Shown here: positions 4,251 to 17,576 of the stretch, in pieces
Layout: the number at the start of each line of letters is the position of its first letter
Position numbering within the stretch: position 1 is the first letter of the stretch
Assembly (NCBI GenBank): GCA_016783745.1
Contig: JADHVZ010000001.1
Span: forward strand, 9,447 to 73,446
DNA length: 64,000 bases
Direction: 5' to 3'
Source of the DNA: Candidatus Omnitrophota bacterium
GTDB taxonomy: Bacteria > Omnitrophota > Gorgyraeia > JAHIPI01
Notes under the pieces: model-generated
Seen by the model: the letters and a program-made list of their open reading frames with translations, nothing else
Database searches by the model: none
Told to the model about the DNA's origin: nothing
Made by a program: the position numbers and the translations under genes

Positions 4251-5342
4251 ATGAGGGCGCTAAAGATATTACTTAAAACTTTTGCCGCGCTTATAATCGT
4301 CAGCGCGCTTTTCGCGGCCGGCGCGGCGGTGCTGGTAAAAATGCGCTGGAAGCCCACAGTAGAGCGATTCTTGAGCGATGCCCTGGGCGTCGGCATAAAG
4401 TTTGAGGGAGCGGCCTTGAACCCGAAGGAATACGCGCTTACGATACGCGGCCTGAAGATTTTGAGCGGCGGAGAATTTGAAAGAAATACCTTTTACGGCG
4501 AAAGATGCACGCTCATGCTGGATAAGGACCTGTATGATGAAGAGGAGAGGCTGTTCGTAAAAGAGGTGGTTATTGAAGGCGGAGAGCTGAGCCTGGAGAG
4601 GAATGAAAAGGGGAGATGGAATATCGAACGCGCCGAATTGCCGGAGGCTGATTTTGGGCCCGGGGCGGCATACGCGGCGGAATCAGAAGGCGGGGCGCCG
4701 CTTTACACTTTTGTAAAAAGCATAAAAAAGGTCAGCATACGGGACTCCGGCATTCTTTTTAAGGATAAATATGTCCCGGGAGGGCCGTTCGAGATGGCCT
4801 TCTATGATTTCGATTTCAAGCTTGACTCCGAAGAGGAATTTGAATCCGTATACGGCTATATACCGATAAAAGTTGAGGCGGATTTCAACATTGAGAATAG
4901 CCTTAACAGGGACAGTAAGATTAGCGTAAAGGGAAAGATCGCGGCATACCCGGGCAGCGCAGCCATGGACATGACCGTCATTGCCTCTTATGTGGACCTG
5001 ATGCAGTTTCTGCCCTATTTTGAGAGTTATACGCCGTTCTCCTTCAATAGCGGCCTTTTCAGCTCCACGACAGAGCTTTCAATAAGGGACAATATGATAG
5101 ATTGCTCTACGACGATGTTATTTCATAAGCTGAATCTGCTCATAGACAAGGGAATGGAAAACGCGCAGTTTCTGGAGACGAGCGTGAATAACCTGGCCCC
5201 GTATCTTATGTCGCGCGGCGAGATACTTTTCGATTTTGTCGTTAAGGGGCCCGTAGATAACCCTAAAGCGAACGTAGGGCCCAAGGTGAAGTCGGCCATG
5301 ACCGCCCTTTTCATGGATGGGATCGGCAAGGCCTTACAGTAG
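4251..5342 (+). CDS. AsmA-like N-terminal domain membrane protein
   Basis: An N-terminal TM helix followed by TVERFLSDALGVGIKFEGAALNP resembles the AsmA/DUF748 N-terminal region. The size is a short 363 aa. Confidence 0.4.
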   Translation: MRALKILLKTFAALIIVSALFAAGAAVLVKMRWKPTVERFLSDALGVGIKFEGAALNPKEYALTIRGLKILSGGEFERNTFYGERCTLMLDKDLYDEEERLFVKEVVIEGGELSLERNEKGRWNIERAELPEADFGPGAAYAAESEGGAPLYTFVKSIKKVSIRDSGILFKDKYVPGGPFEMAFYDFDFKLDSEEEFESVYGYIPIKVEADFNIENSLNRDSKISVKGKIAAYPGSAAMDMTVIASYVDLMQFLPYFESYTPFSFNSGLFSSTTELSIRDNMIDCSTTMLFHKLNLLIDKGMENAQFLETSVNNLAPYLMSRGEILFDFVVKGPVDNPKANVGPKVKSAMTALFMDGIGKALQ

Positions 5343-5466
5343 TTACAAATACTCTCATAACCGGCTCAAATTGGGACGTTTAACCCGCTCCCGGCACCTT
5401 CCGCATGTGCGGCAGCCTCAGGCACATTCCGCTTGGTTTTATTCTCTATTGTGATATAATCTAAAC

Positions 5467-5577
5467 ATGAAAAAGCTTCTGCACATAATCGCGACGCCGA
5501 GAGGGGAGGAGTCCCGGACGCTCAAGGTCTCCGGGGCATTTCTGGGGCAGTTTAAGAAAAAATATCCGGATAAATAG
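5467..5577 (+). pseudogene. Truncated N-terminal remnant of an FMN-dependent NADH-azoreductase-like gene (36 codons, then stop)
   Basis: MKKLLHIIATPRGEESRTLKVSGAFLGQFKKKYPDK* matches the characteristic AzoR N-terminus (MKKLLhI.sSPRGe.S.sr.L...F). A TATAAT sits at 5453-5458. It is followed by about 470 bp of AT-rich non-coding DNA. Confidence 0.3.
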
Positions 5578-6054
5578 TCAGACGGCAACTTCAATGATTG
5601 TAATAGGTTACAAAAGAAATGCACACACCGTATTTTATTTGTAACCCCATGCGCAACAAATAGGCGCGCAACACGTCTGATTGATTGTTAAAGTTAGAAC
5701 CATTAATGTTATTATGATTTTTTTCATCTTTATTTATGTCTCCATATCGGCATGAATTAAATACAACAATTTTGCTTGCTTCTATTATAACATGATAGAA
5801 TGCTGGATAACATTGCTATTTCTCATTTAATAAAGGCTTATAGTGCAATGTCTGGTTTTATCAGCTTCTTCGGTCAGACAATAGACCTTAAGCTCCTCTT
5901 TTAATATCTACTTTAATCTTGTCAAATATTTCCCCGCGGAGTATAATTTATACACAATACGTTTTAAGCGATAAGTGGAGCCTCCCAAAGTGGACCGTCT
6001 CCATTTACTCAGTGGCAAAATGGGCAAAGATGACCATCCAAGAAAAGGAGCACA

Positions 6055-6540
6055 ATGAAAAAACGCATGAAGACTAAAAGTTCCTCAACCTCTGCGGTTG
6101 CCGATCAGGATATCGTGGGACTTCTTACTGCATTGGTCCAGAAGCTTACCTCTTTCGAAGCGAAGATAGACACAGTCCTCAGCCGGATCCCATCACAACC
6201 TTTTGTGGCACCCCCGCAGCAGCCGACGTCGGTCTCTTCATCCGAGCGGCGCAGGGAACCCAGGACCATGCACAAAGTGATCTGCGCAGATTGTGGCAGG
6301 GGTAGTGAAGTCCCGTTCAAACCGAGTGGCGGCCGTCCGGTCTACTGCAAGGAGTGCTTCACAGCACGCAAGAATAACGGCACCTTCAAGCCGCGAGGGG
6401 ATGGCAGGCCAAAAGAAGGGTCGCCAGTACATGTTAGTCCGCCCGAAAAGCCAGAGGCGGTCAAGCCCGCGAGGCCAGTCAAAAAAGAGAAGCCGGCGAC
6501 AAAGGAGAAAAAGAAAAATAGGCGAAAAAAAAGTAGATAG
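6055..6540 (+). CDS. Lysine-rich C4 zinc-ribbon protein, paralog 1
   Basis: AAGGAG RBS. CxxC-x15-CxxC core VICADCGRGSEVPFKPSGGRPVYCKECF, a basic K/R-rich tail and an N-terminal amphipathic segment. Paralogous to 7330-7821. Confidence 0.6.
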   Translation: MKKRMKTKSSSTSAVADQDIVGLLTALVQKLTSFEAKIDTVLSRIPSQPFVAPPQQPTSVSSSERRREPRTMHKVICADCGRGSEVPFKPSGGRPVYCKECFTARKNNGTFKPRGDGRPKEGSPVHVSPPEKPEAVKPARPVKKEKPATKEKKKNRRKKSR

Positions 6541-6599
6541 TAGACGATCTACGTCGCCTATTGTGACAATACCAGACGCTTTACGTCCCAATCGGGAAA

Positions 6600-7238
6600 G
6601 TGTTACTGGCCCAAGACAGAAAGTGTACCCTTAAAAAAGTGTCGCGTCTAATTTTTGAAAAACATAGACATTCTATATCAAAAAAAGAGATCAGCGCTCT
6701 GCCTATCAAACATTACACCGGCCCTATCCATGTGATAGATTCGGACGAGAAAATGAGAGCGGCCGTGCGGTCTCTCGGCAGAGAGAAGGTCTTAGGTTTT
6801 GATACGGAGACGAGGCCCGCTTTTTATAAGGGCATATCCTATCTGCCGTCCCTGCTCCAGCTTGCTGCCGGCGACGGGGTATACATATTCCAGATAGGGC
6901 GTATCGATTCTCATAAACCGCTTGCCGGTATTCTGGCCGATCATAATGTGGTGAAAGCGGGCATTAGCGTCTCGGAGGATATAAAGAAACTGAAAGATGC
7001 ATTGCCCTTCGAGCCCTCACGTTTCATCGAACTGGCGGGCATGGCGGCCAAGGCCGGAATAAAGAACGCAGGCATACGCGGCCTGGCGGCGCTGCTATTC
7101 GGTTTCAGGATATCCAAATCGACGCAGTGCTCCCGCTGGGATGCGCCGACGCTTGCGCACGCGCAGATAGTTTACGCGGCTACCGACGCATGGATATGCA
7201 GAGAGATATATTTCGCGCTGAAAAAATGGGTCGGGTAA
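6600..7238 (+). CDS. 3'-5' exonuclease domain protein (DEDDy, RNase D / WRN-exo-like)
   Basis: Exo I motif GFDTETRP, central acidic motif and YAATDAW (Y-x3-D exo III), typical of PF01612-type exonucleases. The exact start is uncertain, with alternative starts downstream of 6600. Confidence 0.65.
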   Translation: MLLAQDRKCTLKKVSRLIFEKHRHSISKKEISALPIKHYTGPIHVIDSDEKMRAAVRSLGREKVLGFDTETRPAFYKGISYLPSLLQLAAGDGVYIFQIGRIDSHKPLAGILADHNVVKAGISVSEDIKKLKDALPFEPSRFIELAGMAAKAGIKNAGIRGLAALLFGFRISKSTQCSRWDAPTLAHAQIVYAATDAWICREIYFALKKWVG

Positions 7239-7329
7239 ACGTCTATTTCCACATTTTAGCCACTCGTGATTATATAGGTTGCAAGGGGAGTGTCATTTGT
7301 GATACATTACACTAAAAGAGAGGCCTGAT

Positions 7330-7821
7330 GTGAAGAAGCATTTAAAGCGTAACAGAACACCAGCCGCGCGGAAGGATGAGCCGGGTATAGCCGGCCTCAT
7401 CAATGATATGCAGCAGCAGTTGAACGCCATAGAGAAGAAGCTGGATAACTTGATCAGCCAGTCTTCAAGCAGGCCTTTTGAGAAAAGCTATTCACAGAAG
7501 CCTGCCCGGCACTTCGATCACGTTCCTCGCCATGATAGAGGAAGAGAAGGCAACAGGGACGGCGAAAGGACTCTTACCCGGGTCATTTGCTCGGGCTGTA
7601 ACAAAGAATGCGAGATACCGTTCAAGCCCAGCGGGGACCGTCCGGTATATTGCAAGGAATGCTTTGTAAAGCGAAAGAAATCTAAACCGTTTAACGCAAA
7701 CAGGGATAATAGGTCCGAAGACAGAGATTTTCCCCGTAAATATCATTCCGATAAGCAGCAGGGTAAAAAATGGCAAAAGCCCTTCAAGAAGAAAGAGCCA
7801 TTTTACACGCGTATAAAGTAA
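7330..7821 (+). CDS. Lysine-rich C4 zinc-ribbon protein, paralog 2 (GTG start)
   Basis: VICSGCNKECEIPFKPSGDRPVYCKECF is near-identical to the paralog-1 core. N-terminal GIAGLINDMQQQLNAIEKKLDNLISQSSSRPF parallels DIVGLLTALVQKLTSFEAKIDTVLSRIPSQPF. Candidate TTGCAA-18-TACATT promoter upstream. Confidence 0.6.
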   Translation: MKKHLKRNRTPAARKDEPGIAGLINDMQQQLNAIEKKLDNLISQSSSRPFEKSYSQKPARHFDHVPRHDRGREGNRDGERTLTRVICSGCNKECEIPFKPSGDRPVYCKECFVKRKKSKPFNANRDNRSEDRDFPRKYHSDKQQGKKWQKPFKKKEPFYTRIK

Positions 7822-7952
7822 CACGCTGAAGCATTTGACATAAAATCAGGCGCTTTACATAACTTGTTGCGTAATAAAAAATTATAAATAAATCATTCAT
7901 TCAATATTTTGTCTGTAATCTATTGTAAGTACAATAGTCGCGCAACAGTCTA

Positions 7953-8474
7953 ATGTTACCCAGCCAAGAAATTATGAAGAAAACATTTATAATAGACGGA
8001 TACAACGTAATACATAAAATTCCGGAGCTGTGCGCTAAACTCGAAGAAAGCCTCGAAAGCGCTCGAGATGCTTTGGTAATAGAAATACAAAGTTGGAAAA
8101 GACGGTACGCTGACTCAAAGGCATATATTGTATTCGACGGAAAAAACGAAGACATTTTTGATGATCTGCCTACTCGGATATTAGGAATCGATTGTGTCTT
8201 TACCAGGTCCAAAGAATCCGCTGACGACCGAATAATAAGCATGGTGCGAAACGCGGAAGCCCCATCTCTTATAACTGTTATCTCAGATGACAACCAGGTG
8301 AGGAATGGCTGCAGGATGCAAGGGGCTCAAGTACAATATTCGTCTTTTATCAGCATAAATAAGAAAAAGCCCCACAGGCCGGTTAACCGCATCAACAATA
8401 TTGATAATAACATGCAAGAGCAGGAAATAACCGACTATTACAAGAAACATTTGATCAATAAAGGAATCCTATAG
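7953..8474 (+). CDS. YacP/Rae1-like NYN-domain (PIN-like) predicted ribonuclease
   Basis: FIIDGYNVIHKIPEL... is the conserved YacP-family start. An alternative start lies at MKKTF (7974). AT-rich gene. Confidence 0.6.
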   Translation: MLPSQEIMKKTFIIDGYNVIHKIPELCAKLEESLESARDALVIEIQSWKRRYADSKAYIVFDGKNEDIFDDLPTRILGIDCVFTRSKESADDRIISMVRNAEAPSLITVISDDNQVRNGCRMQGAQVQYSSFISINKKKPHRPVNRINNIDNNMQEQEITDYYKKHLINKGIL

Positions 8475-8665
8475 CAAAATATCGTAGGGTTTCCAGCTCT
8501 CCGCCACTCCCTATTCAATCTCATCGGAATTGTTGTAACCTATATATTCTCCAGCAACATATAACTGCGAAAAGAAACACCTACCGTCAGTTATCATCTG
8601 TCTCAGAATCCCTGTTTTTACCGCTATTGTTGGTAAACTGTTGGTAGAAATAGGAGGTGGTAGTT

Positions 8666-8833
8666 GTGAAAGCGATTATTTACGCCAGATGCAGAACAGA
8701 TGAAAGCAGGCAGGATGTGGAAGTCCAGTTAGGCCAGCTGAGACGAGAGTACGAGCAAGAATTTGAGTACGGTTCCGGGTATAAGGGTGATCAGCCTAAG
8801 CTAAAAGGCTGTATAGGGCAGATAAAAATGGGG
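8666..8833 (+). pseudogene. N-terminal fragment of a serine recombinase (resolvase/invertase); catalytic Ser replaced, then truncated
   Basis: VKAIIYARCRTDESRQDVEVQLGQLRREYEQEFEYGSGYKGDQPKLKG aligns to the resolvase N-terminus (AIGYARVSTDEQ...IFEDKASGKSTDRPGLK), with Arg where the nucleophilic Ser belongs. AGGAGG RBS and GTG start. The reading frame then runs into the convergent TPR gene. Confidence 0.45.
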
Positions 8834-8847
8834 CTATATATAATTTA

Positions 8848-10677
8848 TTATTTTACCCCCAATATTTTCTTTAATTCTTCGAGTAACTTAGGATTAATTT
8901 TACACCCCAGCGCTTTTGCTTGTAGTATATCTCTTAGACTTTTATCATATTCTTTTTTGATATAATAGGCAATCCCTCGGTTGTTATAGGCTAAAGCATG
9001 GTTGGGGTCGATTTCTATTACCTTATTGTAATCTAATAACGCCTGGTTGATGTTGCCTTGTTTTCGATAAAGCAGGCCTCGATTAAGGTAGGCTAAATCA
9101 CAATTGGGGTCGATTTCTATTGTCTTGTTGTAATCTAAGAACGCCTGGTTGATGTTGCCCTTACTTCGATAGGTATTACCTCGATTATAGTAGGCTAAAG
9201 CATAGTTGGGGTCGATTTCTATTCCCTTGTTATAGTCTAAGAGTGCCTGGTCGAGGTTGCCTCGGTCTTGATAAAGCAGGCCTCGATTATAGTAGGCTAA
9301 AGCATAGTTGGGGTCGACTTCTATTGCCTTGCTGTAATCTAAGAATGCCTGGTCGAAGTTGCCTTTCTTTTTATAGGCATTCCCTCTGTTGTTGTATGGT
9401 CTGGCTTTATGGGGAGATTTACAAGTTACATCATTCCATAGAGTAAGCTCATCTTTCCAGACAAAATTTCTATAATAAGTTAATATTGAATAAGAAGTAA
9501 CTATCATAAGTAGAATTATAACCACCTGCTTTAGGGCATTCTTTCCGAAAAGATAATACATGCCACTTACTATAAAAAGGCTATAACCAACGATGGGTAA
9601 ATAAAGCCTGTGTTCAAATATTACATCATCAAGAGGCACAATGCTTGATTCCGGCAATAAAGTTATAAAAAACCAGAAAATACCAAATGACAGTAGTCTA
9701 TATCTAGGGAATATACGGATTGCGCCCATTATAATTGCGGCCAGGATAAATAAACTGCCTAATGTATTTATATCCATTAAGTTCTTAGCTATTGGGTAGT
9801 CATAGTCCAGATTCTGGTTTAACGGCGCAAAAAGAAGCCTTATGTAAGTTAATATAACGCGAAATTGAGTTAAAAAATACGCCCCCCCTTTATTGAGAGG
9901 CTTGTCTATTAACCGCTGTATGCACATAAAGTTTTCAGACCTGGTAGAAAATAATAATAAAGGAATAATTAATATTGTAATCAGGAAATATAAGGCGTAT
10001 TTCCAGTTAGCATATCTTTCTATATTAAAGAAACAAAATTCACATAATAGTACTATTAAAGGTAAGGTCGCCGCGTTTTCCTTAGTAAACATGCTGAGTA
10101 TGCAGAAAACGTAGGAAAAAGCGTAAAAAAAAGGCCATTTTGAGGTAGCTTTATTATCTATCTGTAATAGCCTTGTCTTAATATAGAAACATAGTGAAAA
10201 AAGATAAAAGAATCCTACTAAAGAACTACTCCTTTGCCATATGTAAGTGACAGATTGTGTCTGAACAGGGTGGGTTACGAATATTAAGCCTACAAATAAA
10301 GCTATAGAATCAGCGTATTTAGAAATAGCGTTCTTCTTCATTGTAGGCGTAGAAAGGATAAGTATAGTCAGCCAGAATACTAGAATAGCCGAAGCTAAAT
10401 GGATAGCTGTATTAAAGACATGATAGGAAAATACATTAACTTTGGAGAAATGATAGTTTAAAGCAAAGGTAAGAATAGTGATAAACCTGGCGGGCCAGGC
10501 ATTCCAAATATTTCGCAGATTCCAAATGTCTCTTATGGCAAAATTATTAACTATACCAGATCCGTCATCAAAATGAAATGAGTTAAAAAAAGTATTGGAG
10601 TAGACTATAAACCCGAATAAAAGCAGTATGATGATACTCAGTAATTTATAATTTCGATTAAAAAATCTTGTTAACAT
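8848..10677 (-). CDS. GT-C fold membrane glycosyltransferase (PMT/TMTC-like, DUF1736-type) with C-terminal TPR repeats
   Basis: Multi-TM N-terminal region with FHFDDGSGIVNN in the first loop (the DD/DE motif of GT39-like GT-C enzymes). The C-terminus has more than six TPR units (AYYNRG.LY...G....A..DYNK.IEIDPN). Very AT-rich. Confidence 0.6.
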   Translation of the reverse strand: MLTRFFNRNYKLLSIIILLLFGFIVYSNTFFNSFHFDDGSGIVNNFAIRDIWNLRNIWNAWPARFITILTFALNYHFSKVNVFSYHVFNTAIHLASAILVFWLTILILSTPTMKKNAISKYADSIALFVGLIFVTHPVQTQSVTYIWQRSSSLVGFFYLFSLCFYIKTRLLQIDNKATSKWPFFYAFSYVFCILSMFTKENAATLPLIVLLCEFCFFNIERYANWKYALYFLITILIIPLLLFSTRSENFMCIQRLIDKPLNKGGAYFLTQFRVILTYIRLLFAPLNQNLDYDYPIAKNLMDINTLGSLFILAAIIMGAIRIFPRYRLLSFGIFWFFITLLPESSIVPLDDVIFEHRLYLPIVGYSLFIVSGMYYLFGKNALKQVVIILLMIVTSYSILTYYRNFVWKDELTLWNDVTCKSPHKARPYNNRGNAYKKKGNFDQAFLDYSKAIEVDPNYALAYYNRGLLYQDRGNLDQALLDYNKGIEIDPNYALAYYNRGNTYRSKGNINQAFLDYNKTIEIDPNCDLAYLNRGLLYRKQGNINQALLDYNKVIEIDPNHALAYNNRGIAYYIKKEYDKSLRDILQAKALGCKINPKLLEELKKILGVK

Positions 10678-10788
10678 AATAATCCATTATCAATAGTTAA
10701 AAGCGACAGTTCTATTCTTTTGCGATATTTATATATTATACCAAATTGCGCTTACTGTAAATATTTTTTTATCATTGCATAGCAAAAT

Positions 10789-10860
10789 GGGGACAGACAC
10801 TTTTTACATAATTAGGGACGAAGCCTAATTACTAAAGTGTCTGTCCCTATTTTATCGTAG
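10789..10860. repeat. Nested palindromic element copy 1. The outer stem GGGGACAGACACTTT pairs with AAAGTGTCTGTCCC. The inner stem is AATTAGG with CCTAATT.
   Basis: Read directly. Right flank is ATTTTATCGTAGAG. It lies in the divergent intergenic region between the TPR-GT gene and the beta-CASP gene. Confidence 0.8.
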
Positions 10861-11025
10861 AGTTAGATACTTTCTACTTACTTGAATTTCACCCCTTTCC
10901 ACCTTGCCAAAACCAGCCCGCAGGAGTAAAATAATTACTTGCCACAAACAGATCAGGGTGTTGCAACAGTATCTTGAGCCTAAGGTCTGATATAGCTAAC
11001 CAAAACAAACGGATTTTTCCAATAT

Positions 11026-12318
11026 ATGAAACTAACCATTCATCGCGGGACTCAAGAAATCGGTGGTAGCTGTGTAGAGCTAAACACAGGAAAGTCTCGA
11101 ATACTTATAGATCTCGGAATGCCGCTTGTAAATGATAAAAAAGAGTCTTTTGATTCAAAAACACTTACCAATAAATCTCCGGATGATCTTAAAAAACTAA
11201 AAATCCTTCCTGACATAAAGGGTCTGTATAGAGGTGAAGAAAAAGCCATAGACGGCATTCTTATTTCTCATTCCCATATGGATCATTATGGGTTTCTCAA
11301 GTTTGTGAATCCTGATATACCGATCTATATGAGTGAAGGCGCTAAGATGTTGGTCGAGATATCGGATATTTTTATTCCTCATAAAACGGGGAATCTTAAT
11401 GTAAAGACTATTGATAAAATAAAGAGTTTTGCTATAGGAGAATTTAAGGTCGATTCGTATCTGGCAGATCATTCAGCTTTTGACGCGCGTGCGTTCTTGA
11501 TCGAAGCTGATGGTAAGAGAATATTCTATTCAGGTGATTTCAGGGCCCATGGGAGGAAAAGCGTTCTATTCAAGCGTATGATCTCGCATCCACCGGAAGC
11601 TATTGATGCCCTGCTTATGGAAGGATCAATGATCGGAAGGAGTAATCAGGCCTATAAAGATGAAAATGCCATACAGTCCCGGATCGAAAAGATCTTAAAA
11701 TCCAGCAATAACGTAACTTTCCTGTTTACCTCATCGCAAAATATTGATAGGCTCGTCTCAGCGTACAAGGCATGTATTAAAACCGGACATATCTTCGTAA
11801 TAGACATTTATACAGCTTATATTCTGGACAAGCTTAGAAAAGTATCAAAGGGCATTCCGCAATTCAACTGGCGAAACATCAAGGTAAAGTTTTTGAAAAA
11901 CCAGGCCGACACACTGGCAAAGAAGGTATCAACAAAACTTCTTTATCATTACAATACACAAAAGATAGACATATTCGAGATAAACAGAAAGAAAAACAAG
12001 ATCCTTATGCTTGCGCGTGATAATTCGATTTTTCCCAAGATCATAAAAGGCATAGACGATCCCAGAGGCGCAACAGTCATCTATTCAATGTGGGGAGGCT
12101 ATTTAAACGACAGATTCCGCGACTTCTGCGCAAATAAAGGCCTTACAATCGAACAAGTCCACACAAGCGGCCATGCTACAGTTGAGGATCTGGAAGCATT
12201 TGCGAAGGCCATAAGCCCAAAAACGTTAATACCGATCCATACTTTTGAAGGACAGAAATACCCGGAGATGTTTGAAAACGTTAGAATCTTAAAAGACGGC
12301 GAGCTTTTTGAGATTTAA
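11026..12318 (+). CDS. beta-CASP family metallo-beta-lactamase-fold nuclease (RNase J / CPSF-like core, no KH domain)
   Basis: N-terminal GTQEIGGSCVEL (compare CPSF73 GQEVGRSC), MBL motif HSHMDHYG, ADHSAF...SGDF, and the C-terminal beta-CASP motif-C HTSGHA. Confidence 0.7.
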   Translation: MKLTIHRGTQEIGGSCVELNTGKSRILIDLGMPLVNDKKESFDSKTLTNKSPDDLKKLKILPDIKGLYRGEEKAIDGILISHSHMDHYGFLKFVNPDIPIYMSEGAKMLVEISDIFIPHKTGNLNVKTIDKIKSFAIGEFKVDSYLADHSAFDARAFLIEADGKRIFYSGDFRAHGRKSVLFKRMISHPPEAIDALLMEGSMIGRSNQAYKDENAIQSRIEKILKSSNNVTFLFTSSQNIDRLVSAYKACIKTGHIFVIDIYTAYILDKLRKVSKGIPQFNWRNIKVKFLKNQADTLAKKVSTKLLYHYNTQKIDIFEINRKKNKILMLARDNSIFPKIIKGIDDPRGATVIYSMWGGYLNDRFRDFCANKGLTIEQVHTSGHATVEDLEAFAKAISPKTLIPIHTFEGQKYPEMFENVRILKDGELFEI

Positions 12319-12353
12319 ATGTTAGATACGCGCCATAAATAGGAGGATTTACT

Positions 12354-12755
12354 ATGCAGATAGAAGTGTTTTCTTTGTGTGACGCAGCTACGGTTAACGC
12401 CGGTAAGTTAAATATATTGGGAGCCTTTGATACGATTTGGGCAAGAAAAATACCGATTGTGCATCCCCAATGTTCCGTTGCTCTCAGAATCAGATTTGAT
12501 CGTATTGAAAAGGGCGACCATAGTATATCAGTAAATTTTGTTGATGAAGATGGTAAGCATATTATGCCGGCAGCCAACGGCACTATAAGAATAAATATCC
12601 AGAATGGGCAGCGTTCCGCATCCGCGCATTTAGTCCTGAATATACAGGGCCTTAATCTTAAGAGGTGCGGGGAATATTCAGTGGATCTGGCTATAGATGG
12701 CAGAAGGGATTTATCTTTACCTCTTTATGTGAGAGAACATAAAGAGCGAAAATAA
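12354..12755 (+). CDS. Hypothetical protein (133 aa) between two nuclease genes
   Basis: GGAG RBS and a compact same-strand arrangement. No motif recognised. Confidence 0.4.
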   Translation: MQIEVFSLCDAATVNAGKLNILGAFDTIWARKIPIVHPQCSVALRIRFDRIEKGDHSISVNFVDEDGKHIMPAANGTIRINIQNGQRSASAHLVLNIQGLNLKRCGEYSVDLAIDGRRDLSLPLYVREHKERK

Positions 12756-12812
12756 TCTCATTACACTTAACAGCGTAAAAACTAATAAAGCTTATTTAAG
12801 GAAGATGAGCCG

Positions 12813-13595
12813 ATGAAATTATTGCGGACTATAATTATATTCGATCTTGAGACAACCGGCACATGGGTTGAAAAGGATAAGATCGTTGAGATCGGCATGG
12901 TTAAATTGATGCCGGACGGGACAAGGCAGACTTATGTAAAGCGTGTCAATCCGGGTATGCCGATCCCAAGGAATGTCAGCCGCCTTATTAATATTAACGA
13001 TGATGACGTTAAAGACGCGCCGCCTTTTAAGGATATAGCTAAAGAAGTGACGGAGTTTATAGGCGATTCCGACCTGGGCGGGTTTAATATCCTGAGGTTT
13101 GATCTGCCTATTCTTGAGCGCGAGCTTTATGGTGCCGGCTTTAGCTTTTATTGGCGCGAACGGGACATTTACGATGCTCAAAAGGTTTATCACATACATG
13201 AAAAGAGAGATCTGACAGCCGCTTATAAACTATACTGCGATAAAGAGCTTGAGAATGCTCATTCCGCCCTTGGTGACGCTGAGGCGACAGTTGAGATATT
13301 TGATTCCCAGATCAAAAGGTATGGGGCTCCGGAACAGGGTATAGAGTCTTTGAAAGATTTTGATTACGAGCGCTCCAGCGCATATTTTGATAAAGAGCGT
13401 AAGTTTTTCTGGTGGAACGGGCATCTGTATCCCGTATTCGGAAAGTACGGAAGGAAAAAACATATACAAGATATACTTAAGATAGATCGTCGGTATTTAG
13501 AGTGGATGCTTAGCTCTGATTTTAGTGAAGAAGTTAAAATGATGATTAAAAATGTTCTCAGCGGCAAATTTCCGCAAGCACCCGAGAACTTATAA
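12813..13595 (+). CDS. DnaQ-like DEDDh 3'-5' exonuclease with a C-terminal extension
   Basis: Exo I motif IIFDLETTG, exo II, and exo III HSALGDAEAT (H-x4-D, DEDDh type). About 90 extra C-terminal residues of unknown function. Confidence 0.7.
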   Translation: MKLLRTIIIFDLETTGTWVEKDKIVEIGMVKLMPDGTRQTYVKRVNPGMPIPRNVSRLININDDDVKDAPPFKDIAKEVTEFIGDSDLGGFNILRFDLPILERELYGAGFSFYWRERDIYDAQKVYHIHEKRDLTAAYKLYCDKELENAHSALGDAEATVEIFDSQIKRYGAPEQGIESLKDFDYERSSAYFDKERKFFWWNGHLYPVFGKYGRKKHIQDILKIDRRYLEWMLSSDFSEEVKMMIKNVLSGKFPQAPENL

Positions 13596-13600
13596 TTTTT

Positions 13601-14779
13601 TTATCCCGTATGGTAATCCCAGACGGCTTTTATATCCGAAAGAGGAACCACAGAAAGCTTTTTCCCCAATTTATAATTTGTTTTTCCCGGGTATATAACC
13701 CATAAATGCGCAAGCTCGAGATCTTTTAAAGCTATTTCCATGGATCTCGTTTTTCTCGGGGCATCGGAGTATTTAAATTCTACGCCCCAGTTTTTTCCTT
13801 TATGCTGCCAAAAAAGATCTAGCTCAGCCCCCGCATGCGTTTGCCAAAAGTAAAGTTCCTCATCGCGTTTATTCAGGCTTCTGGCGATACACTCAAGAGC
13901 AAGGCCTTCCCATGAGGCGCCAAGCTTATTATGCGAGAAGAGTTGTTTTTTATTACCTATAGATATGAGAGAGTGAAAAATACCCGAATCTCGTATATAT
14001 ATTTTCGGGCGTTTTATAAGACGCTTTTTTGTATTGGTGTACCATGGTTGCAAAACTCTGAGCATAAAAGTTCCTTCAAGGATATTTATGTATTTTTTTA
14101 CAGTCATGTCTGAGATACCGAAAGAGCGGCCTATTTCCGAGTGATTTACCACCTGCGAATGATAATGGCTTATCATGATCCAGAATTTTCTAAGAGTGCG
14201 GGCAGGTATGAATATTCCCAGTTGCGGAATATCTCTCTCAAGAAAAGTGCTTATGTAATTTTCAAGCCATAAAAAAGATTCATCATATGATTTTGCCAGA
14301 TAAGATCTTGGGAAGCCTCCTCGCAGCCATAATTTTTGCAGGTTCTTTTTTCCTATGTCTGAAAGAGTAAACCCGCCCAGGCGATGATAGGCTATTCTTC
14401 CCGCAAGCGATTCCGAGCTTTGCTGTATTAAATCCTTTGAAGCGCTCCCCAGTATTAGGTATTTCTGTTTTGGGTTTGAATCTACGAGATAGCGGATAAG
14501 CTGGAAGATGTCGGGTGCGCGTTGTATTTCGTCTATTACTATAAGCCCCTTGAGGTCCTCAAGCGCTAGCTGGGGGTTTTCAAGCCCGACCGAATCGCGC
14601 GGGTTTTCAAGGTCAAAATAATACTCGAATCTAATTTGATTGGCGATAACAGTTTTTCCGCATTGCCTGGGTCCCAGGATTGCCGTAACCGGAAAAGAAG
14701 AAGTTAGGTTATTAATATTTTCAGTCTCGGTTTTTCTTTTGATCAGTTTTTTCATGCTATAAGTATACGCTATATTCAT
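13601..14779 (-). CDS. AAA+ ATPase, AAA_14/DUF4143 family
   Basis: Walker A ILGPRQCGKT, Walker B LIVIDEIQ, and a C-terminal DUF4143-like region. Architecture typical of this widespread family. Confidence 0.7.
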   Translation of the reverse strand: MNIAYTYSMKKLIKRKTETENINNLTSSFPVTAILGPRQCGKTVIANQIRFEYYFDLENPRDSVGLENPQLALEDLKGLIVIDEIQRAPDIFQLIRYLVDSNPKQKYLILGSASKDLIQQSSESLAGRIAYHRLGGFTLSDIGKKNLQKLWLRGGFPRSYLAKSYDESFLWLENYISTFLERDIPQLGIFIPARTLRKFWIMISHYHSQVVNHSEIGRSFGISDMTVKKYINILEGTFMLRVLQPWYTNTKKRLIKRPKIYIRDSGIFHSLISIGNKKQLFSHNKLGASWEGLALECIARSLNKRDEELYFWQTHAGAELDLFWQHKGKNWGVEFKYSDAPRKTRSMEIALKDLELAHLWVIYPGKTNYKLGKKLSVVPLSDIKAVWDYHTG

Positions 14780-17165: not shown

Positions 17166-17576
17166 ATGAGATTCGCGGTAAGCGGCCATAAAGAGGAAGC
17201 CTTAAAAGCGAAAATGGCTTTTTTGGGTATCAAAGAAGCGGATATTGAGGAAAAGTTCATACGCTCAGGCGGAAGGGGTGGGCAAAATGTCAACAAGACC
17301 TCCACGTGTGTCTATCTTAAGCACAAGCCTTCAGGGATAGAGGTCAAGTGCCAAAAGGAGCGCTCCCAGGCGTTAAATCGCTTCCTGGCTAGAAGGATCC
17401 TTACCAATAAGATCGAATCACTTATACTGGGTAAAAAGGCGGAAAAACAGAAGAGAATAGAGAAGATAAGGCGCCAGAAGCGAAAACGCTCCAAGAAAGC
17501 CAAAGAGAAGATCCTCAGATATAAAAAGATGCGCTCGGAAAAGAAGAAACTGCGAAGGCCTCCCGACGTAGAATAA
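17166..17576 (+). CDS. arfB: Peptidyl-tRNA hydrolase ArfB (YaeJ-type alternative ribosome-rescue factor)
   Basis: GGQ motif in [16 protein letters not shown] and the characteristic basic C-terminal tail. 136 aa. Confidence 0.75.

Follow-up and report, generated by a model that had tools for sequence, protein, structure and literature searches.

Proteins of the PF23477 zinc-finger family are abundant in proteomes, and in Methanosarcina mazei they belong to the small proteins detected with the greatest confidence (PMC12704099). Zinc binding by two M. mazei members, A00184 and A01980, has been measured by ICP-MS, and this was the only experiment that we found in the literature on PF23477 and TIGR04272 (PMC12704099). 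The authors of that study speculated that the proteins have a role in transcription, the finger being likened to a TFIIB-type ribbon (PMC12704099). A comparison of function only can be made with the plant AtCSDP1/2 and RZ proteins, which are proven RNA chaperones with CCHC zinc knuckles (PMC1802614, PMC4011930). Like PF23477 proteins, the plant cold-shock domain (CSD)/glycine-rich proteins have small zinc fingers together with low-complexity segments rich in Gly/Arg, but they carry a CCHC knuckle rather than the Cys4 treble clef predicted here, and there is no sequence homology between the two groups. The cold-shock domain is fused within the plant proteins, whereas for PF23477 proteins the connection is through neighboring genes.

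Little work has been devoted to RNA-binding proteins from uncultivated prokaryotes, bacterial or archaeal, and the PF23477 finger family contains thousands of sequence clusters. Here we analyze two such genes, termed ZR1 and ZR2, in a 64,000-nucleotide stretch of DNA from a Candidatus Omnitrophota bacterium (the window). Like the M. mazei proteins, their products are small and basic, with the same domain by HMM and the same cysteine spacing; they differ in having an amphipathic helix with a K-[IL]-D motif at the N-terminus and, at the other end, a long basic tail.

ZR1 and ZR2 Are Paralogues in a Named Zinc-Finger Family

ZR1 (6055..6540, + strand) is an open reading frame with an ATG start encoding 161 residues with a pI of 10.45, while ZR2 (7330..7821, + strand) has a GTG start and encodes 163 residues with a pI of 10.07. 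Their starts are separated by 1,275 bp, in agreement with a first-pass annotation that had described two paralogous genes 1.3 kb apart. The two proteins are 37% identical over 131 residues (BLASTP, E 3e-27), in a match that spans the N-terminal helix and the finger and bears out the paralogy. The common core proposed in that annotation is also present (VICADCGRGSEVPFKPSGGRPVYCKECF in ZR1, VICSGCNKECEIPFKPSGDRPVYCKECF in ZR2), and the three-part design that it recognized is kept across the 20 homologues in our alignment, A1.

The first-pass annotation had placed the ribbon in no recognized family, a view that is superseded. In a Pfam/NCBIfam search, PF23477 (zf_Tbcl_2; cut-off 27) matched ZR1 with 65.5 bits (3.4e-18) and ZR2 with 58.1 bits (6.9e-16), and TIGR04272 (cut-off 36) matched them with 66.3 bits (1.4e-18) and 58.8 bits (3e-16), respectively. 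The latter model is named "CxxC-x17-CxxC domain-containing protein", and orthologues are labeled accordingly in NCBI and JGI records. As that name implies, the cysteine pairs are separated by 17 residues (regular-expression matches at residues 77-101 of ZR1 and 87-111 of ZR2), and not by the 15 given earlier. We regard ZR1 and ZR2 as anciently diverged paralogues, belonging to a large zinc-finger family whose members are small and abundant.

That family comprises 6,675 clusters at 50% identity and has members in archaea as well as in Omnitrophota and CPR bacteria. ZR1 has 420 homologues, for the most part from Omnitrophota, and ZR2 has orthologues across Omnitrophota with up to 73% identity (locus L058). 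More distant architectures include relatives with two to five fingers connected by RG/RGG-like linkers, and mini-proteins of ~55 residues with a Gly-rich N-terminus. When multidomain architectures were sought with the finger alone, in a word-indexed homologue search, all of the 120 matches listed were ~55-residue mini-proteins. A finger-helicase fusion is known, and none was confirmed among those 120 matches. An apparent 554-residue fusion to a glycosyltransferase in locus L063 was rejected, being another reading frame in a GC-rich contig.

The Finger Is Predicted to Be a Treble Clef

The finger occupies residues 70-106 of ZR1 (6262..6372, + strand), as delimited by the Pfam envelope, the structural models and the cysteine spacing, and residues 80-116 of ZR2 (7567..7677, + strand; C87, C90, C108 and C111), as delimited by the Pfam envelope and spacing. 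In AlphaFold2 (AF2) models of ZR1, two strands (73-76 and 83-86) are followed by a helix (99-108), with C77 and C80 in a β-hairpin knuckle and C98 and C101 at the N-terminus of the helix; pLDDT for the finger was >90 in the full-length model and averaged 85 when the finger was modeled alone. The best structural neighbors, although weak, were all treble-clef fingers (PHD, FYVE, RING, LIM, GATA, eS26 and uS14), which have the same predicted topology, i.e., a knuckle in a β-hairpin and a helix whose N-terminus provides the last two ligands. The second LIM finger also has a CxxC-x17-CxxC-like spacing, as in ZR1 and ZR2, and the finger profile, run against PDB sequences, gave only non-significant LIM matches (E 0.15-0.23).

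The predicted fold is therefore a treble-clef finger, rather than the zinc ribbon of the first-pass annotation. A classical ribbon of the TFIIB/TFIIS or ribosomal type, in which both CxxC knuckles are placed in β-hairpins of a three-stranded sheet, does not fit the predictions: the second CxxC lies on a helix in both models. The sole ribbon HMM to match ZR1 and ZR2, PF14599, did so with 17.1 and 12.1 bits, below its cut-off of 27.

Within the finger, R70, P87, F88, P90, V96, K99 and R105 (ZR1 numbering) are invariant in A1, and R94, Y97 and F102 are nearly so. The loop between the cysteine pairs is kept across bacteria and archaea, which favors a universal ligand over a lineage-specific protein partner.

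Helix and Finger Modules Occur in Either Order

Residues 12-43 of ZR1 (6088..6183, + strand) form a predicted amphipathic helix, as judged from the AF2 model and an a/d heptad pattern, with a pLDDT of ~90 for residues 21-40 and a hydrophobic moment of 0.48. It includes a K-I-D motif in which K37 and D39 are invariant in A1. The corresponding helix of ZR2 (7363..7458, + strand), located by the ungapped BLASTP alignment to residues 12-43 of ZR1, has a K-L-D motif and a hydrophobic moment of 0.51. The N-terminal amphipathic segment noted previously thus stands, but the S.PF sequence said to end it holds only loosely (SQPF and SRPF here, with RPA or RSF among relatives). The linker between helix and finger comprises about 30 disordered residues.

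Beyond the finger, ZR1 has a disordered K/P/A-rich tail (residues 107-161; 6373..6537, + strand), defined by composition and by pLDDT, which is ~50 or less past residue 112; it is kept in A1 as K-rich low-complexity sequence. Both tails are basic, as had been described: past the last cysteine, ZR1 has 21 Lys plus Arg against 6 Asp plus Glu in 60 residues, and ZR2 has 19 against 6 in 52. The ZR2 tail is rich in Arg, Asp and Lys, with aromatic residues.

The K-[IL]-D motif is also found C-terminal to the fingers, and on this sequence evidence the helix and finger modules are permuted across relatives, traveling together in either order. The K-L-D helix follows the fingers in 101 of the 149 top relatives; hhalign aligned the N-terminal and C-terminal versions with a probability of 78%, a value biased by the choice of segments with a motif regular expression. 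The helix-finger-tail order belongs to Omnitrophota, and the order in CPR relatives is finger-finger-helix-tail; in the Omnitrophota mini-proteins the finger stands alone, preceded by a Gly-rich N-terminus. This permutation across phyla provides a clear starting point for experiments.

These features bear on whether ZR1 and ZR2 might be RNA polymerase-binding transcription factors, either acting like TraR/DksA in the secondary channel or having a finger that resembles a TFIIB-type ribbon. The PROSITE pattern for DksA/TraR has the spacing CxxC-x17-CxxC, exactly as in ZR1 and ZR2, and in both groups the finger is preceded by a long helix, whose start in A1 carries a nearly invariant acidic residue, D19. 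Some old records, moreover, name the mini-proteins "DNA-directed RNA polymerase", and a transcription role was suggested for the M. mazei proteins (PMC12704099). However, the record names are unverified transfers, and PF01258 (zf-dskA_traR) did not match ZR1 or ZR2 at E <= 1. The finger loop sequence differs from that of DksA/TraR, and ZR1 and ZR2 have a disordered linker and a basic tail. Most relatives, moreover, have an internal helix, placed after the fingers and before the tail, which makes it a poor fit to insertion into a polymerase channel. We consider a role of this kind very improbable.

Linkage to the Exonuclease Is Not a General Rule

As the first-pass annotation had stated, ZR1 and ZR2 bracket a DEDDy 3'-5' exonuclease gene (6600..7238, + strand; PF01612, 1.3e-21). 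It encodes a single-domain enzyme with the motifs D68-x-E70, D127 and Y192-x3-D196; GenBank starts it at 6639 (199 residues) under the name "3'-5' exonuclease domain-containing protein 2". The best relatives of solved structure are Mut-7, WRN-exo and EXD2, and the protein resembles WRN-exo, Mut-7, EXD2 and NrnC in its PF01612 domain, DEDDy set and size of ~200 residues. Canonical RNase D was rejected as an identity, given a TIGR01388 score (42.7 bits) far below the cut-off of 298.95, the lack of an HRDC domain and the length of only 199-212 residues.

The earlier proposal of a partnership with this exonuclease can be put in the form that the two proteins serve it as dedicated accessory subunits, bringing substrate to it and perhaps to the NYN ribonuclease described below. 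The genes for ZR1, the exonuclease and ZR2 all point the same way in the window, spaced by 59 and 91 nt, and no intrinsic terminator is predicted in either gap; the exonuclease, NYN and ZR2 genes remain grouped in L058 despite rearrangement. A canonical RNase D gene also lies 32-57 nt downstream of the ZR2-type gene in L050, L060 and L069 and ~20 nt downstream in L062, although in L052 it is ~1.1 kb away.

Against this, when 80 related loci were searched over +/-10 kb with an HMM built from both exonuclease types, a PF01612 exonuclease was found in only six. All six are ZR2-type and fall into two narrow clades, one consisting of L058 and the other of L050, L052, L060, L062 and L069 (the RNase D genes of L050, L052, L060 and L069 are 83%-100% identical); none of the ZR1-type loci among the 80 had such a gene within this distance. 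Around the nearest orthologues of ZR1, which are 84% and 79% identical to it, the neighbors are other, unrelated genes. Gene order is unlike even between the two closest genomes, the closest relative having the order EXO-NYN-ZR2-BipA, without ZR1, and the finger family as a whole is far wider than its linkage to the exonuclease. The position of ZR1 and ZR2 around the exonuclease is not conserved in most related genomes, and a subunit role is, in our estimation, improbable. The annotation had held that two findings together would count against its proposal, i.e., a match of the ribbon to a well-characterized family and an unconserved adjacency; the family proved to be named but not well characterized, and the adjacency is not conserved. 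The exonuclease partnership, the source of the original interest, thus fails as a general rule. ZR1 and ZR2 would instead be separate genes, with the arrangement around the exonuclease probably arising by local rearrangement in the lineage of the window.

Recurrent Neighbors Relate to RNA and Translation

Downstream of ZR2 is a gene for a YacP/Rae1-like NYN-domain ribonuclease (7953..8474, + strand; PF05991, 3.5e-22, 79.6 bits against a cut-off of 24.6), with a likely start at 7974 that would give the 166 residues called in GenBank. It matched the structure of Bacillus subtilis YacP (5mq8) with an E value of 1.9e-06, and an NYN gene also adjoins ZR2 in L058. Together with the DEDDy exonuclease and this RNase, a 12 kb part of the window includes genes for an MBL/RMMBL hydrolase, an RNase T-type exonuclease and an ArfB-like protein.

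In the related loci, each recurrent neighbor is limited to a sub-clade, and the counts come from related genomes that are not independent samples; the theme that these neighbors form is a broad one. BipA/TypA adjoins the ZR2-type gene in nine loci, RNase D in five and CSD genes in about four, and a gene for an ArfB-like RF-1 domain protein adjoins in five loci and one for an RNase T-type exonuclease in three, in each case including one ZR1-type locus. Mini-protein genes adjoin CSD genes in L003, L036, L049 and L081-L084. No conserved neighbor was found for the ZR1-type loci and no recurring one in the archaeal and CPR contexts inspected. A tblastn search for BipA showed it to be absent from the 64 kb of the window, and an Rfam scan of the window detected one tRNA and nothing else.

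A General Nucleic-Acid-Binding Role Is Proposed

In the best explanation, to which we attach an even chance, ZR1 and ZR2 are general nucleic-acid binders, probably for RNA. The four cysteines would hold a single Zn2+ in the treble-clef finger, and the exposed 17-residue loop, VPFKPSGxRPVY, with its nearly invariant aromatic and basic residues, would contact nucleic acid, with RNA, single-stranded or structured, as the most likely ligand. Additional, non-specific electrostatic affinity would come from the disordered tail, rich in Lys and Arg. Finally, we infer that the K-[IL]-D helix mediates dimerization or oligomerization, which would allow a ZR protein to bridge or coat nucleic acid and to act like an RNA chaperone or a ribosome- or RNA-associated factor. 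This proposal, like the suggestion of nucleic-acid binding or RNA chaperoning in the first-pass annotation, is consistent with the composition of the proteins, their RG-rich relatives and the recurrent neighbors. Gly-rich and RG low-complexity regions are frequent companions of RNA binding.

The ZR1 tail, judged by its composition, looks as much like the K/P/A-rich DNA-binding tails of histone H1 type as like RNA-binding tails. ZR1 and ZR2 might therefore be DNA-binding nucleoid-associated proteins, the tail compacting DNA like those of histone H1, Hc1 or mycobacterial HupB and the finger and dimerizing helix forming bridges. The consensus tail of ZR1-type proteins, KP(A/V)KxxKKKKPxAKKKKKK, and the 21 Lys plus Arg in 60 residues of ZR1 are in keeping with this, as are the abundance of the family in proteomes (PMC12704099) and the lack of conserved functional neighbors of ZR1-type genes, which would suit a global structural protein. 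So too is a strong, stand-alone sigma-70-like promoter candidate for ZR1 (5919..5947, + strand), defined solely by its match to the consensus (TTGTCA-17 nt-TATAAT, 11/12 matches). HMMs of the histone H1-like and Hc1 families did not match; the composition of the ZR1 tail fits such proteins, but ZR2, whose tail is not H1-like, and the mini-proteins do not. K-rich tails are missing from the mini-proteins and the multi-finger relatives, where Gly- or RG-rich segments are present instead, and the recurrent neighbors belong to translation and RNA rather than to replication or the chromosome. A nucleoid role is, on balance, unlikely.

Returning to RNA binding, a wider reading, possible but tentative, is that the PF23477 finger, the K-L-D helix and the basic or RG-rich tails mark out a class of RNA-binding or RNA-chaperone proteins in prokaryotes that is widespread and highly expressed and possibly associated with the ribosome. 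It would span Omnitrophota, CPR bacteria and several archaeal phyla and be a functional counterpart of the eukaryotic zinc-knuckle/RGG proteins. ZR1 and ZR2 would then be specialized paralogues, which might form a heterodimer through their matching heptad helices. Should a general role as RNA chaperones or in association with the ribosome be borne out, the proteins would supply something missing from Omnitrophota and CPR, whose reduced genomes are short of many classical factors.

Upstream Regions and Gene Calls

In L002 and L006, the ZR1 orthologues are preceded by a sequence (TTGTC...TAAAAT..TACA) that resembles the ZR1 promoter candidate. Alignment of the ZR1 5' regions, in a search for a conserved leader or thermosensor, revealed only promoter-like hexamers, a ribosome-binding site and the start codon in common, and a 36-residue open reading frame in the spacer at 5343-6054 had no Pfam match. 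The GenBank calls for ZR1 and ZR2 are N-terminally truncated, at 90 and 137 residues. We favor the long forms because of the homologues, the Shine-Dalgarno sequence and the conserved ATG; the truncation cuts into the conserved helix, an observation of practical use.

Two Basic Paralogs Flank an Exonuclease Gene and Are Truncated in GenBank

The small zinc-finger proteins ZR1 (6055..6540, + strand, 161 aa, ATG start) and ZR2 (7330..7821, co-directional, 163 aa, GTG start) are 37% identical (E = 3e-27), in an alignment spanning the N-terminal segment and the cysteine core. Between them lies a gene for a DEDDy exonuclease (6600..7238, 212 aa; PF01612 at 1.3e-21), and downstream of ZR2 is one for a YacP/Rae1-type NYN protein (7953..8474, 173 aa). 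Both proteins are basic (pI 10.45 for ZR1 and 10.07 for ZR2), with 21 Lys and Arg residues per 60 beyond the last cysteine in ZR1 and 19 per 52 in ZR2. The coordinates, alignment, composition, and exonuclease and NYN matches all hold, so the observation made in the first-pass annotation, i.e., paralogs of shared design with very basic tails on either side of an exonuclease, is real, except that the cysteine spacing reported as CxxC-x15-CxxC is CxxC-x17-CxxC in both. Residues D68, E70, D127, Y192, and D196 of the exonuclease were all found; it contains no detectable HRDC domain and falls far short of the equivalog cut-off for RNase D, its closest solved relatives being Mut-7, WRN-exo, and EXD2.

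In GenBank, these genes (ISS26_00075 and ISS26_00085) encode hypothetical proteins of 90 aa beginning at M72 (ZR1, MBL7070556.1) and 137 aa beginning at M27 (ZR2, MBL7070558.1). Judged from homologous sequences, both calls are N-terminally truncated, cutting into or removing a conserved amphipathic helix. The complete N terminus is common to 20 aligned homologs, full-length forms are annotated in other assemblies, and ZR1 orthologs share an AAGGAG ribosome-binding site and ATG start. A promoter-like site (TTGTCA-17-TATAAT, 5919-5947) upstream of ZR1 recurs upstream of two orthologs. The AT-rich spacer preceding ZR1 (5343-6054) is unusually long at 712 bp and contains a 36-codon ORF (5468-5578; MKKLLHIIATPRGEESRTLKVSG...), possibly a gene remnant; there was no Pfam match to this ORF and no Rfam match in the spacer.

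The Cysteine Motif Belongs to a Named Family with a Predicted Treble-Clef Fold

ZR1 and ZR2 each score well over the curated cut-offs for Pfam PF23477 (zf_Tbcl_2, "probable treble clef zinc finger") and NCBIfam TIGR04272 ("CxxC-x17-CxxC domain-containing protein"), and orthologous records already bear the family name. By these profile matches, ZR1 and ZR2 are members of a named, functionally uncharacterized zinc-finger family, contrary to the earlier view that the motif was not a recognized one. The only literature found on the domain is a 2025 study of M. mazei, in which two small proteins carrying it bound zinc by ICP-MS, their function being left open (PMC12704099).

In an AF2 model of ZR1, with an alignment of 22 sequences as input, an N-terminal helix (residues 12-43) and the finger (strands 73-76 and 83-86, helix 99-108) are both predicted with confidence, whereas the linker between them and the tail are disordered. 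Because C77 and C80 are predicted to lie in the hairpin knuckle and C98 and C101 at the start of the helix, the modeled finger is a treble-clef arrangement and not, as first proposed, a zinc ribbon. The cysteine spacing equals that of the DksA/TraR finger, despite which neither ZR1 nor ZR2 gave a match to it. That the two proteins are RNA polymerase factors appears very improbable.

Relatives Fall into Distinct Groups and Carry the Modules in Permuted Order

A profile search of 1.84 billion representatives returned 6,675 clusters at E ≤ 1e-3, of which 2,917 also reached E ≤ 1e-10. The full helix-finger-tail form gave 420 hits, mostly from Omnitrophota. In a set of 80 related genome loci, 71 were parsable, with the best score to ZR1 in 22 and to ZR2 in 49, which argues that by sequence the ZR1 and ZR2 types behave as separate groups. 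Full-length copies of both types within 10 kb of each other occurred in none of the 80; only in the window are they this close.

Very abundant in Omnitrophota is a mini-protein of ~55 aa, with a Gly-rich N terminus followed by the finger (MGFQQGGGGFGGGPREMHKATC...CKECFSKRK). Its gene is often immediately 3' of a ZR2-type gene (mini-protein genes include L015:10568-10744, L036:10542-10676, L048:445-627, L074:6155-6334, and L081:4001-4168, among others), and cold-shock (CSD) genes adjoin it repeatedly, in several loci. No copy was found within the 64 kb window. Some old mini-protein records are labeled "DNA-directed RNA polymerase."

The best-scoring representatives are CPR and archaeal proteins with two to five fingers joined by RG-rich linkers, belonging to Gracilibacteria, Peregrinibacteria, Thermoplasmatota, and Pacearchaeota (P0243-P0389, e.g., P0251, P0256, P0284, and P0298). 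Among the 149 top representatives, 101 have a helix (consensus xQFExLNxKLDKILxxL) on the C-terminal side of the fingers; it shares a K-[IL]-D motif with the N-terminal helix of ZR1 and ZR2, in which K37 and D39 are invariant in the Omnitrophota alignment and hydrophobic residues are spaced in an a/d heptad pattern. A K-rich tail follows the helix in two of ten fully read sequences (P0251 and P0298). Profile-profile comparison of the helix sets gave a probability of 78%, in a test biased by the picking of segments with a motif regex. We read these sequences as the same three modules in permuted order, which argues that finger, helix, and tail function together.

The Exonuclease Linkage Is Restricted to a Few Loci

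With an HMM trained on the two exonuclease types, we found an exonuclease within ±10 kb in only six of the 80 loci, and near none of the ZR1-type genes. The closest relative, L058, carries an exonuclease 87% identical to that of the window and lacks ZR1 (order EXO-NYN-ZR2-BipA). The other five (L050, L052, L060, L062, and L069) all belong to a single narrow clade with a canonical RNase D, 83-100% identical among L050, L052, L060, and L069; it lies 20-57 nt 3' of the ZR2-type gene in four clade loci and ~1.1 kb 3' in L052. The nearest ZR1 orthologs (84% and 79% identity) have unrelated neighbors.

In L058 (129-5960) the order is geneX(-), EXO, NYN, ZR2, BipA, and an RNase T-type exonuclease gene. 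In the window (6600-14779), ZR2 and NYN have exchanged places, BipA was not found in the 64 kb, and two genes sit 5 kb off, the RNase T-type one (12813-13595) and geneX (13601-14779, AAA_14/DUF4143). This comparison of gene order shows that the arrangement in the window arose by local rearrangement, and points to a recent one; the bracketing by ZR1 and ZR2 is thus peculiar to this genome. Between ZR2 and an exonuclease there is still a weak association, confined to particular clades. The partnership originally suggested did not extend across the loci, and there is little likelihood that ZR1 and ZR2 are exonuclease cofactors. GC content drops to 0.36-0.39 in the 8-12 kb segment of the window.

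Other Neighbors Are Suggestive of RNA and Translation

Recurrent neighbors, nearly all beside ZR2-type genes, encode BipA/TypA (nine loci, either side, co-directional), a MacB-type ABC transporter (seven, one ZR1-type), an ArfB-like RF-1 domain protein (five, one ZR1-type and four ZR2-type), RNase D (five), cold-shock CSD proteins (about four), and an RNase T-type exonuclease (three, one ZR1-type). ZR1-type genes had no recurrent neighbor in the 80-locus comparison. Near ZR1 and ZR2 in the window are additional genes related to RNA or translation, encoding a metallo-beta-lactamase/RMMBL hydrolase (11026-12318), the DEDDh exonuclease of the RNase T family, whose C terminus is ExoX-like, and an ArfB-like RF-1 domain protein (17166-17576) that is 77% identical to ArfB-like proteins encoded beside ZR-type genes in five other loci. 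Because the category is broad and genomes that are related do not count as independent samples, we treat these neighbors as only suggestive of RNA and translation.

The mechanism with the most support, to which we give roughly even chances, has the finger, with its tail and helix, binding nucleic acid, more likely RNA. Zinc would stabilize the treble-clef finger, whose aromatic and basic loop is universally conserved; the disordered basic tail and an oligomerizing helix would assist it, and the ligand of the assembly would be nucleic acid, RNA more likely. That ZR1 and ZR2 serve as nucleoid proteins seems unlikely.

An AsmA/DUF748-family gene (4251-5342) lies directly upstream of ZR1, across the 712 bp spacer, and another lies directly upstream of a mini-protein gene in a distant Omnitrophota contig (L085:2985-3926); this may be remnant synteny. 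In three lineages, a TadA-like deaminase gene (dCMP_cyt_deam_1/MafB19-deam; L081:4734-5669, L086:90-527, and L094:5394-5924) lies a few genes from a PF23477 gene, the latter encoding an Omnitrophota mini-protein, a ZR1 ortholog, or a two-finger form from an unclassified bacterium; this proximity may be coincidence.
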